From assembly GCF_022846255.1 (NCBI RefSeq), contig NZ_AP025682.1: a stretch of DNA of 64,000 bases, one strand, 5' to 3'. Made by a program: the position numbers and the translations under genes. This document shows positions 16,457 to 17,143 of this stretch, one piece after another. Under the pieces are notes generated by a model. The model made no database searches, had not been told where the DNA came from, and worked only from the letters and a program-made list of their open reading frames with translations. Position 1 is the first letter of the stretch; each line of letters begins with the position of its first letter. The stretch is from Escherichia coli (GTDB taxonomy: Bacteria; Pseudomonadota; Gammaproteobacteria; Enterobacterales; Enterobacteriaceae).

Positions 16457-16469
16457 GATTGGCAGCTAC

Positions 16470-16560
16470 CTGCCAGATAAGGCGTAAACGCCTTATCTGG
16501 CCTACGTTCAGCACATTACCCCCAGGTCGGATAAGACGCGGCAAGCGTCGCATCCGGCAA
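16470..16560. repeat. REP (repetitive extragenic palindrome) units downstream of rlmG
   Basis: Palindromic units GCCAGATAAGGCGTAAACGCCTTATCTGGC (16472..16501) and GGATAAGACGCGGCAAGCGTCGCATCCGGC; classic REP/BIME composition. Confidence 0.7.
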
Positions 16561-16649
16561 TATCTGCCCAGTTCTGGAATCGCGCTTCCATAAAACAAAA
16601 AATCCCTGTCACCATCCTCTACATTCTCTTGTTTAGCGTTGTTCAACGT

Positions 16650-16730
16650 TTATGCTACATACGTGAAGTTATGACGCATAAAGAATACGATTTCTTTACC
16701 GCCGTTCATCGTACTAAGGGGAAAAAATGA
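16650..16730 (+). pseudogene. higB: 3' remnant of toxin gene higB (last ~25 codons only)
   Basis: Frame ending at TGA 16728..16730 (overlapping higA ATG as ATGA) translates ...CYIREVMTHKEYDFFTAVHRTKGKK*, matching the HigB C-terminus as recalled. Upstream the frame runs through REP sequence to a TAA at 16485 with no ATG/GTG start; the 270 bp between rlmG and higA cannot hold a 104-aa gene. Confidence 0.55.
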
Positions 16731-17143
16731 TTGCGATTGCCGACATCTTGCAAGCAGGAGAAAAGTTAACTGCTGTGGCACCTTTTCTGGCGGGTATTCA
16801 GAACGAGGAACAATACACCCAGGCGCTGGAACTGGTAGATCATCTGCTGCTCAACGATCCTGAAAACCCCTTGCTGGATCTGGTGTGTGCCAAAATAACC
16901 GCGTGGGAAGAATCAGCGCCCGAATTTGCTGAATTTAATGCCATGGCGCAAGCCATGCCTGGCGGTATAGCTGTGATTCGTACCCTTATGGATCAATATG
17001 GTTTAACCCTTTCCGATCTTCCGGAAATTGGCAGTAAATCGATGGTGTCACGCGTTTTGAGCGGGAAGAGGAAATTAACGCTGGAACACGCTAAAAAACT
17101 GGCAACGCGATTCGGCATTTCTCCCGCCTTGTTTATTGATTAA
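16727..17143 (+). CDS. higA: Antitoxin HigA (XRE-family HTH)
   Basis: 138-aa ORF MIAIADILQAGEKLTAVAPFLAGIQNEEQYTQALELVDHLL... with C-terminal HTH; intact. Confidence 0.88.
   Translation: MIAIADILQAGEKLTAVAPFLAGIQNEEQYTQALELVDHLLLNDPENPLLDLVCAKITAWEESAPEFAEFNAMAQAMPGGIAVIRTLMDQYGLTLSDLPEIGSKSMVSRVLSGKRKLTLEHAKKLATRFGISPALFID

Follow-up and report, generated by a model that had tools for sequence, protein, structure and literature searches.

An intact higA preceded by a 25-codon remnant of higB at the rlmG-fadH site of Escherichia coli

RESULTS

Organization of the rlmG-fadH interval

The window, by which we mean the whole 64-kb stretch of E. coli DNA that was analyzed, carries higA at the rlmG-fadH chromosomal position of the HigBA module. 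The features of this interval are as follows.

15320 to 16456, + strand: rlmG, 378-aa open reading frame (ORF), 23S rRNA m2G1835 methyltransferase, upstream of higA and on the same strand
16465 to 16502: REP hairpin 1 (inverted repeat I3, RNA fold, sub-threshold naRNA4 match, same place in K-12)
16525 to 16560: REP hairpin 2 (repeats D1 and I2, RNA fold, sub-threshold naRNA4 match)
16561 to 16652, + strand: spacer common to K-12, where it lies upstream of the higBA promoter (alignment columns 162 to 253); its end is the left breakpoint
16652 to 16653, + strand: deletion junction, with 325 bp absent relative to K-12 (L002 1853 to 2177)
16653 to 16730, + strand: higB pseudogene remnant, codons 80 to 104 plus the stop codon, in ATGA overlap with the higA start
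16716 to 16721, + strand: AAGGGG, a putative Shine-Dalgarno sequence read from the DNA, inside the higB remnant and 5 nt before the higA ATG
16727 to 17143, + strand: higA antitoxin gene, intact, 138 aa
17147 to 17177: REP hairpin 3, between the convergent higA and fadH (inverted repeat I5, direct repeat D1)
17188 to 19206, - strand: fadH (2,4-dienoyl-CoA reductase), 672-aa ORF, convergent downstream neighbor, annotated in homologous loci

The rlmG annotation was found in all homologous loci. The original prediction had placed 270 bp between the rlmG stop and higA, which is exact (rlmG ends at 16456 and higA starts at 16727), and had described an intact 138-aa higA without an adjoining toxin gene, which is also what we observed. 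The HigA protein of the window is identical to K-12 HigA, with 7 synonymous and 0 nonsynonymous changes in the gene, and gave a full-length match to chain B of PDB entry 5IFG (E=1.2e-86). A C-terminal HTH domain is present, the TIGR02607 match to residues 78 to 136 being weak and below the cutoff; NCBIfam profiles gave no useful information on proteins of this small size.

Only the last 25 codons of higB remain

The frame that runs into the ATGA overlap encodes a peptide ending in CYIREVMTHKEYDFFTAVHRTKGKK and the stop codon, and corresponds to residues 80 to 104 of K-12 HigB, with 25/25 residues identical (BLASTP, E=3e-18). The K-12 reference for both HigB and the locus was DH1, a K-12 derivative fetched as L002, and K-12 HigB is identical to chain A of 5IFG. 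These last 25 codons are all that is left of higB between rlmG and higA, as had been proposed. A tblastn search of the 64-kb window with the full 104-aa HigB matched residues 80 to 104 alone (16653 to 16727) and detected no second HigB-like sequence there. Full-length HigB, a RelE-fold ribosome-dependent mRNA interferase of 104 aa, is not encoded directly upstream of higA, and the locus has the arrangement of a solo antitoxin, in that higA is intact and no functional gene for its toxin adjoins it.

The frame of the remnant had also been described as running upstream, without a start codon, back to a stop codon. The in-frame stop is real (16485 to 16487), but a TTG at 16629 and an ATG at 16671 are present in this frame; the former opens a 33-aa ORF, and the latter, which is Met86 of HigB, could give a 19-residue peptide. 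A translated mini-ORF from either codon was rejected, as neither has a Shine-Dalgarno sequence. HigB-derived sequence begins at 16653, and the frame 5' of this position is noncoding spacer that is present in K-12 too. A functional RelE-fold HigB mRNA interferase cannot be made from the surviving part of higB.

The window lacks 325 bp of the K-12 locus

A four-way alignment was made of the window, the near-identical truncated allele L001, the K-12 locus (L002), and L003, which has neither gene. Compared with K-12, the window has a single gap of 325 bp, and the flanks are colinear and 96 to 99% identical. K-12 does not have the same short spacer, its rlmG-higA distance being ~594 bp. The missing segment (L002 1853 to 2177) comprises 88 bp 5' of higB, which hold promoter, operator, and ribosome-binding site (RBS) sequence, and exactly 79 codons, namely, codons 1 to 79 of higB (L002 1941 to 2255).

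At the junction, between 16652 and 16653, there is microhomology of at most 1 nt, and no foreign sequence is inserted. Slippage between direct repeats was rejected as the deletion mechanism, since the junction microhomology is just 1 nt (T), and the CTAC motifs near both ends were rejected as sites of a crossover, since both are kept in the product. Two single-nucleotide polymorphisms (SNPs) lie just left of the junction, with G/A in the window and T/T in K-12. They were also considered as by-products of the deletion and dismissed, as the K-12 variant is found in the truncated allele L011 and a third variant in the full allele of O157; varying within truncated and full alleles alike, they are ordinary polymorphisms. 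Across the junction, a 96-nt stretch is unchanged in CFT073 and five other compared loci (of which L001 and L006 to L008 are listed), and L011 differs at 2 sites. The exact 22-mer of the junction is present in 9 fetched loci, including that of CFT073.

REP elements lie away from the breakpoints

REP hairpin 1 has a perfect 14-bp stem (16472 to 16485 with 16488 to 16501). REP hairpin 2 is formed at 16526 to 16558, and its 3' arm, CGCGGCAAGCGTCGCATCCGGC (16537 to 16558), is a direct repeat of the REP located 3' of higA; this hairpin is kept in K-12 and in an allele in which the site is empty. The REP hairpins are stable in the RNA fold, without a U-tract, and an Rfam scan gave only sub-threshold matches to the REP-derived family naRNA4.

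According to the original prediction, a REP-associated deletion or replacement had removed higB. The module is indeed flanked by three REP hairpins, and the junction of the empty-site allele falls inside a 14-nt direct repeat, GCGTCGCATCCGGC, common to REP 2 and REP 3, both of which would suit such a mechanism. However, the two upstream REPs of the window allele are intact and occupy the same positions as in K-12, a common spacer of ~92 bp separates REP 2 from the left breakpoint, the right breakpoint lies within higB and far from every REP, and the junction contains no extra sequence, so nothing was inserted. Breakpoints in or at a REP or BIME are thus found only in the separate empty-site allele, and for the window a REP-mediated deletion or replacement of higB was rejected as very improbable.

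The empty-site allele itself, found in ~20% of genomes, is without higBA (L003 1601 to 1790, from E. coli strain 103, compared with window 16537 to 16558 and 17151 to 17172). It is this allele, and not that of the window, that is explained by REP-to-REP recombination or by insertion into a REP.

The promoter and operators of higBA are within the missing segment

K-12 higBA has a single mapped promoter and start, upstream of higB, and none upstream of higA (Christensen-Dalsgaard et al. 2010, PMC2814082). This promoter is repressed by HigA, which constitutes autoregulation (PMC2814082). The K-12 locus has just one strong sigma-70-like site, TTGCCA-16-TATCAT (L002 1882 to 1909; TG-extended, 10/12). 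It overlaps the palindromes TTGCCAATCTGGCAA and TTGCCAATTTGTCAA, and both palindromes lie with it inside the deleted 325 bp, in agreement with the earlier suggestion that the native operon promoter was probably lost. The window therefore lacks the autoregulated promoter, with its palindromic operators, that alone drives the operon from upstream of higB in K-12, and HigA operator-like palindromes were detected nowhere in its 64 kb. Since the operators are deleted and none is found elsewhere in the window, self-repression is lost, and HigA would presumably no longer be able to repress its own transcription.

At the standard threshold, a scan of positions 16300 to 17300 returned 0 promoter-like sites and 0 terminators on the + strand. 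A relaxed promoter scan of the spacer returned six 7/12 sites, which is within chance (4.7 ± 2.6 expected in shuffles). We also observed a site, TTGTTT-16-TATGCT (16629 to 16656), whose -10 hexamer spans the junction and which exists in the truncated allele alone. As a new promoter made at the junction it was rejected, being only a 7/12 match when the number of weak sites is within chance; nonetheless, it is the obvious candidate should a start site upstream of higA be mapped.

The last 78 nt of higB, kept in the deletion, hold the Shine-Dalgarno-like AAGGGG of higA. The higA mRNA, if any, would come from rlmG read-through across two REP hairpins that lack a U-tract or from very weak fortuitous promoters, and read-through is probably the source. 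Such read-through can be attenuated by REP hairpins. A literature search found no higA expression data for CFT073.

The truncated allele is common among E. coli genomes

The frequency of each form was determined in a census of 5426 complete RefSeq E. coli genomes, as follows.

Junction-centered 54-mer: 1520/5426 genomes (28.0%)
325-bp segment deleted in the window: 2848/5426 genomes (52.5%)
Whole locus covered at least 80%: 4359/5426 genomes

The complete operon is carried by ~52% of the genomes. In ~20% neither higA nor higB is found, and rlmG, one REP, and fadH remain. Because the genomes with the junction and those with the deleted segment together nearly equal the locus-positive genomes, the two classes are essentially exclusive, and the truncated genomes are therefore without a second 5' half of higB elsewhere. 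A second higB copy is thus generally absent from truncated genomes, which for the genome of the window is an indirect statement drawn from the census.

Of the 16 fetched truncated loci, 15 have the 78-nt remnant annotated by PGAP as an incomplete HigB "missing N-terminus," and in L006 a 72-nt piece with both termini absent is marked, so a pseudogene is called in 16/16. The allele is carried by the reference uropathogen CFT073, in which the 78-nt pseudogene C_RS29500 precedes an intact higA encoding a protein identical to that of K-12. An orphan higA at the fadH-rlmG site has been reported for CFT073 and NRG857c (Bustamante and Vidal 2020, PMC7232551), and the decay of chromosomal toxin-antitoxin (TA) loci at conserved positions of E. 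coli by deletion or nonsense mutation is established (reviewed in PMC7167474). The original prediction implied that the allele was rare. Present in 28% of complete genomes, annotated by PGAP, and described in the literature, the truncated higB/orphan higA allele is already known, widespread, and ordinary.

An assembly or sequencing artefact in the window would be a trivial reason for the truncation; the chance of this is negligible, given the identical junction in 1520 independently assembled complete genomes, including CFT073, which also shows that the pattern did not arise by chance. We hold with high confidence that the higBA locus of the window, a chromosomal type II TA locus of E. coli, is present in its common truncated form, and no observation contradicted the deletion. 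One old 325-bp deletion removed higB codons 1 to 79 and the RBS before them, along with the promoter and the two HigA operator-like palindromes.

Some observations were made on the records compared. For window positions 10000 to 30000, the closest of the 5426 complete genomes is at most 98.2% identical over 20 kb, and between window 1267 to 49532 and CFT073 the block-wise identity is 98.2, 97.6, 99.1, and 98.5%; judged by these identities, the window comes from a poorly represented or mosaic lineage. A 474-bp contig of Pseudomonas khazarica TBZ2 (L015, NZ_SBHZ01000041.1, coverage 0.7) contains the K-12-type higB promoter and gene, 1 nt off K-12, and almost certainly entered the Pseudomonas assembly as contaminating DNA of laboratory E. 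coli. In CFT073, rpoD (C_RS18155, L017 13642 to 15485) is a frameshifted pseudogene in RefSeq, and the rpoD ORF of the window (35603 to 37444, 613 aa) is intact. Since rpoD is an essential gene, the CFT073 frameshift is presumably a sequencing error in an old assembly.

The full operon is ancestral

An exact-pattern scan of GTDB species representatives returned just two loci, a narrow basis for statements on other species. A full higBA is located at the same rlmG-fadH site in Escherichia sp. E1V33, a separate GTDB species (L016, NZ_RHJI01000011.1, 1 to 1250). The presence of the full operon in E1V33, together with a remnant that reads in frame as HigB, makes the full form ancestral and that of the window derived; an origin of the full allele by insertion was excluded by the HigB reading frame. 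The higA gene of E1V33 is just 1 nt from that of K-12, much closer than expected between species, which suggests recent exchange across the species boundary.

The identical junction was found in widely differing backgrounds, namely, in CFT073, in O104:H21, and in bovine, otter, mouse, and chicken isolates, and we infer from this shared sequence that the deletion had a single origin. The higA haplotypes are nevertheless unsorted by deletion state. One truncated group, comprising the window and CFT073, has 6 to 7 synonymous differences from K-12 higA, and another (L007, L018, L021, and L019) is 1 nt from it. This lack of sorting requires recombination or, less likely, recurrence, and a recurrent identical deletion is unlikely because the ends are without repeats. 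The most parsimonious interpretation is a single old deletion that homologous recombination has moved around, and the allele may since have reached ~28% of sequenced E. coli by vertical descent as well as by such recombination. Loss of the toxin first would be the only viable order of decay, yielding a harmless toxin pseudogene and an orphan antitoxin. Another form was observed in L014 (989 to 1302; E. coli strain 142, NZ_CP048337.1), in which higB is full-length but frameshifted and higA is intact; the frameshift being independent, the toxin was lost more than once at this locus.

Orphan higA is intact and may or may not be under selection of its own

The higA gene is an intact 138-codon ORF in 17/17 truncated alleles (the window and 16 genomes), and 11 of the 17 encode a protein identical to K-12 HigA. 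Over the whole set, which is biased towards divergent alleles, there were 18 synonymous and 12 nonsynonymous polymorphic sites; in eight alleles chosen regardless of divergence, the counts were 9 and 1. As higA has ~98 synonymous and ~316 nonsynonymous sites, for a neutral expectation of ~1 to 3, its variation looks like that left by purifying selection. If the deletion is old, the absence of decay is harder to reconcile with a leftover that is purely neutral.

These counts could mean that selection maintains the orphan higA in its own right, either for anti-addiction or immunity against plasmid- or phage-borne HigB or as an HTH regulator of other targets. Consistent with such a role, the deletion spared precisely the stretch with the putative Shine-Dalgarno sequence of higA, and enterobacterial plasmids carry HigB relatives (71% identity in Erwinia; over 1000 records fall below 60%). 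However, none of the plasmid or phage HigB proteins is close enough to expect cross-neutralization, and the only genuine plasmid match of at least 99% is a mislabeled chromosome. Furthermore, the synonymous variation is largely common to intact-operon haplotypes and may predate the deletion or have come by recombination, so selection cannot be assigned to the orphan state; the truncated allele L007 is just 1 nt from the higA of the full K-12 operon. The orphan gene also has no recognizable promoter upstream, operator-like palindromes are absent from the 64-kb window, and ~20% of E. coli lack higA altogether, which makes it dispensable. Retention by selection is in our opinion an unlikely explanation, and we doubt that purifying selection preserves HigA, as a passenger of rlmG free of autoregulation, for some function independent of the toxin in over a quarter of E. 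coli. Were this true, orphan HigA could provide a standing immunity against HigB-type toxins arriving on plasmids or phages or could regulate other genes.

Two further observations concern the records behind these comparisons. The only listed plasmid match at 100% to HigB, H113 (NZ_CP141089.1), is a 4.94-Mb E. coli record in the plasmid collection and is evidently a chromosome. In the truncated alleles L004, L009, and L010, seven shared substitutions fall close together in codons 4 to 15 of higA, in a 40-nt stretch at the 5' end of the gene (I4L, A5S, D6N, K13Q, and synonymous changes), as if a short tract had been imported by recombination from a divergent higA. L004 additionally has L111S in the predicted HTH region.

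DISCUSSION

The common truncated higBA allele, as we read the window, carries little weight as a discovery, since RefSeq annotates it, its presence in CFT073 and NRG857c has been published, and it agrees with the accepted view that chromosomal TA loci decay toxin first. It does entail a caveat, in that results obtained with K-12 higBA, such as stress induction and claims on persistence, are not transferable to the ~48% of E. coli without functional HigB, which include major uropathogenic and Shiga-toxin-producing lineages.

Compared with known systems, the window shares with higBA of E. coli K-12 (ygjNM; PMC2814082; PDB 5IFG) the rlmG-fadH site, a 100% identical HigA, the last 25 codons of HigB, the ATGA overlap, the upstream REPs, and the spacer. 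It differs from K-12 by the missing 325 bp, which comprise higB codons 1 to 79, the RBS of higB, the promoter, and the two palindromes, and it consequently has neither toxin nor autoregulation. The orphan higA of uropathogenic E. coli CFT073 and AIEC NRG857c (PMC7232551; NC_004431.1, C_RS29500/C_RS18230) represents the same allele with the same 78-nt pseudogene. CFT073 matches the window at all 96 nt compared across the junction, its HigA is the same protein, WP_000560266.1, and its higA is 1 nt different from that of the window; the difference is one of background only, the window being 97.6 to 99.1% identical across 48 kb.

The reverse-order TA systems mqsRA and rnlAB, which have an extra antitoxin promoter (PMC7167474), resemble higBA in their toxin-first order, and independent transcription of the antitoxin is possible in principle. 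In contrast to them, K-12 higBA has no start upstream of higA, and the remnant in the window has no promoter-like site. The decay of ccdO157 (Mine et al. 2009; reviewed in PMC7167474) likewise concerns a chromosomal TA system at a conserved site, with intact, degenerate, and absent forms and with the toxin inactivated first. It differs from higBA in belonging to another TA family and in showing many independent nonsense mutations, whereas higBA shows one deletion at 28%. Overall, the allele is a textbook stage of toxin-first decay of a chromosomal TA locus.
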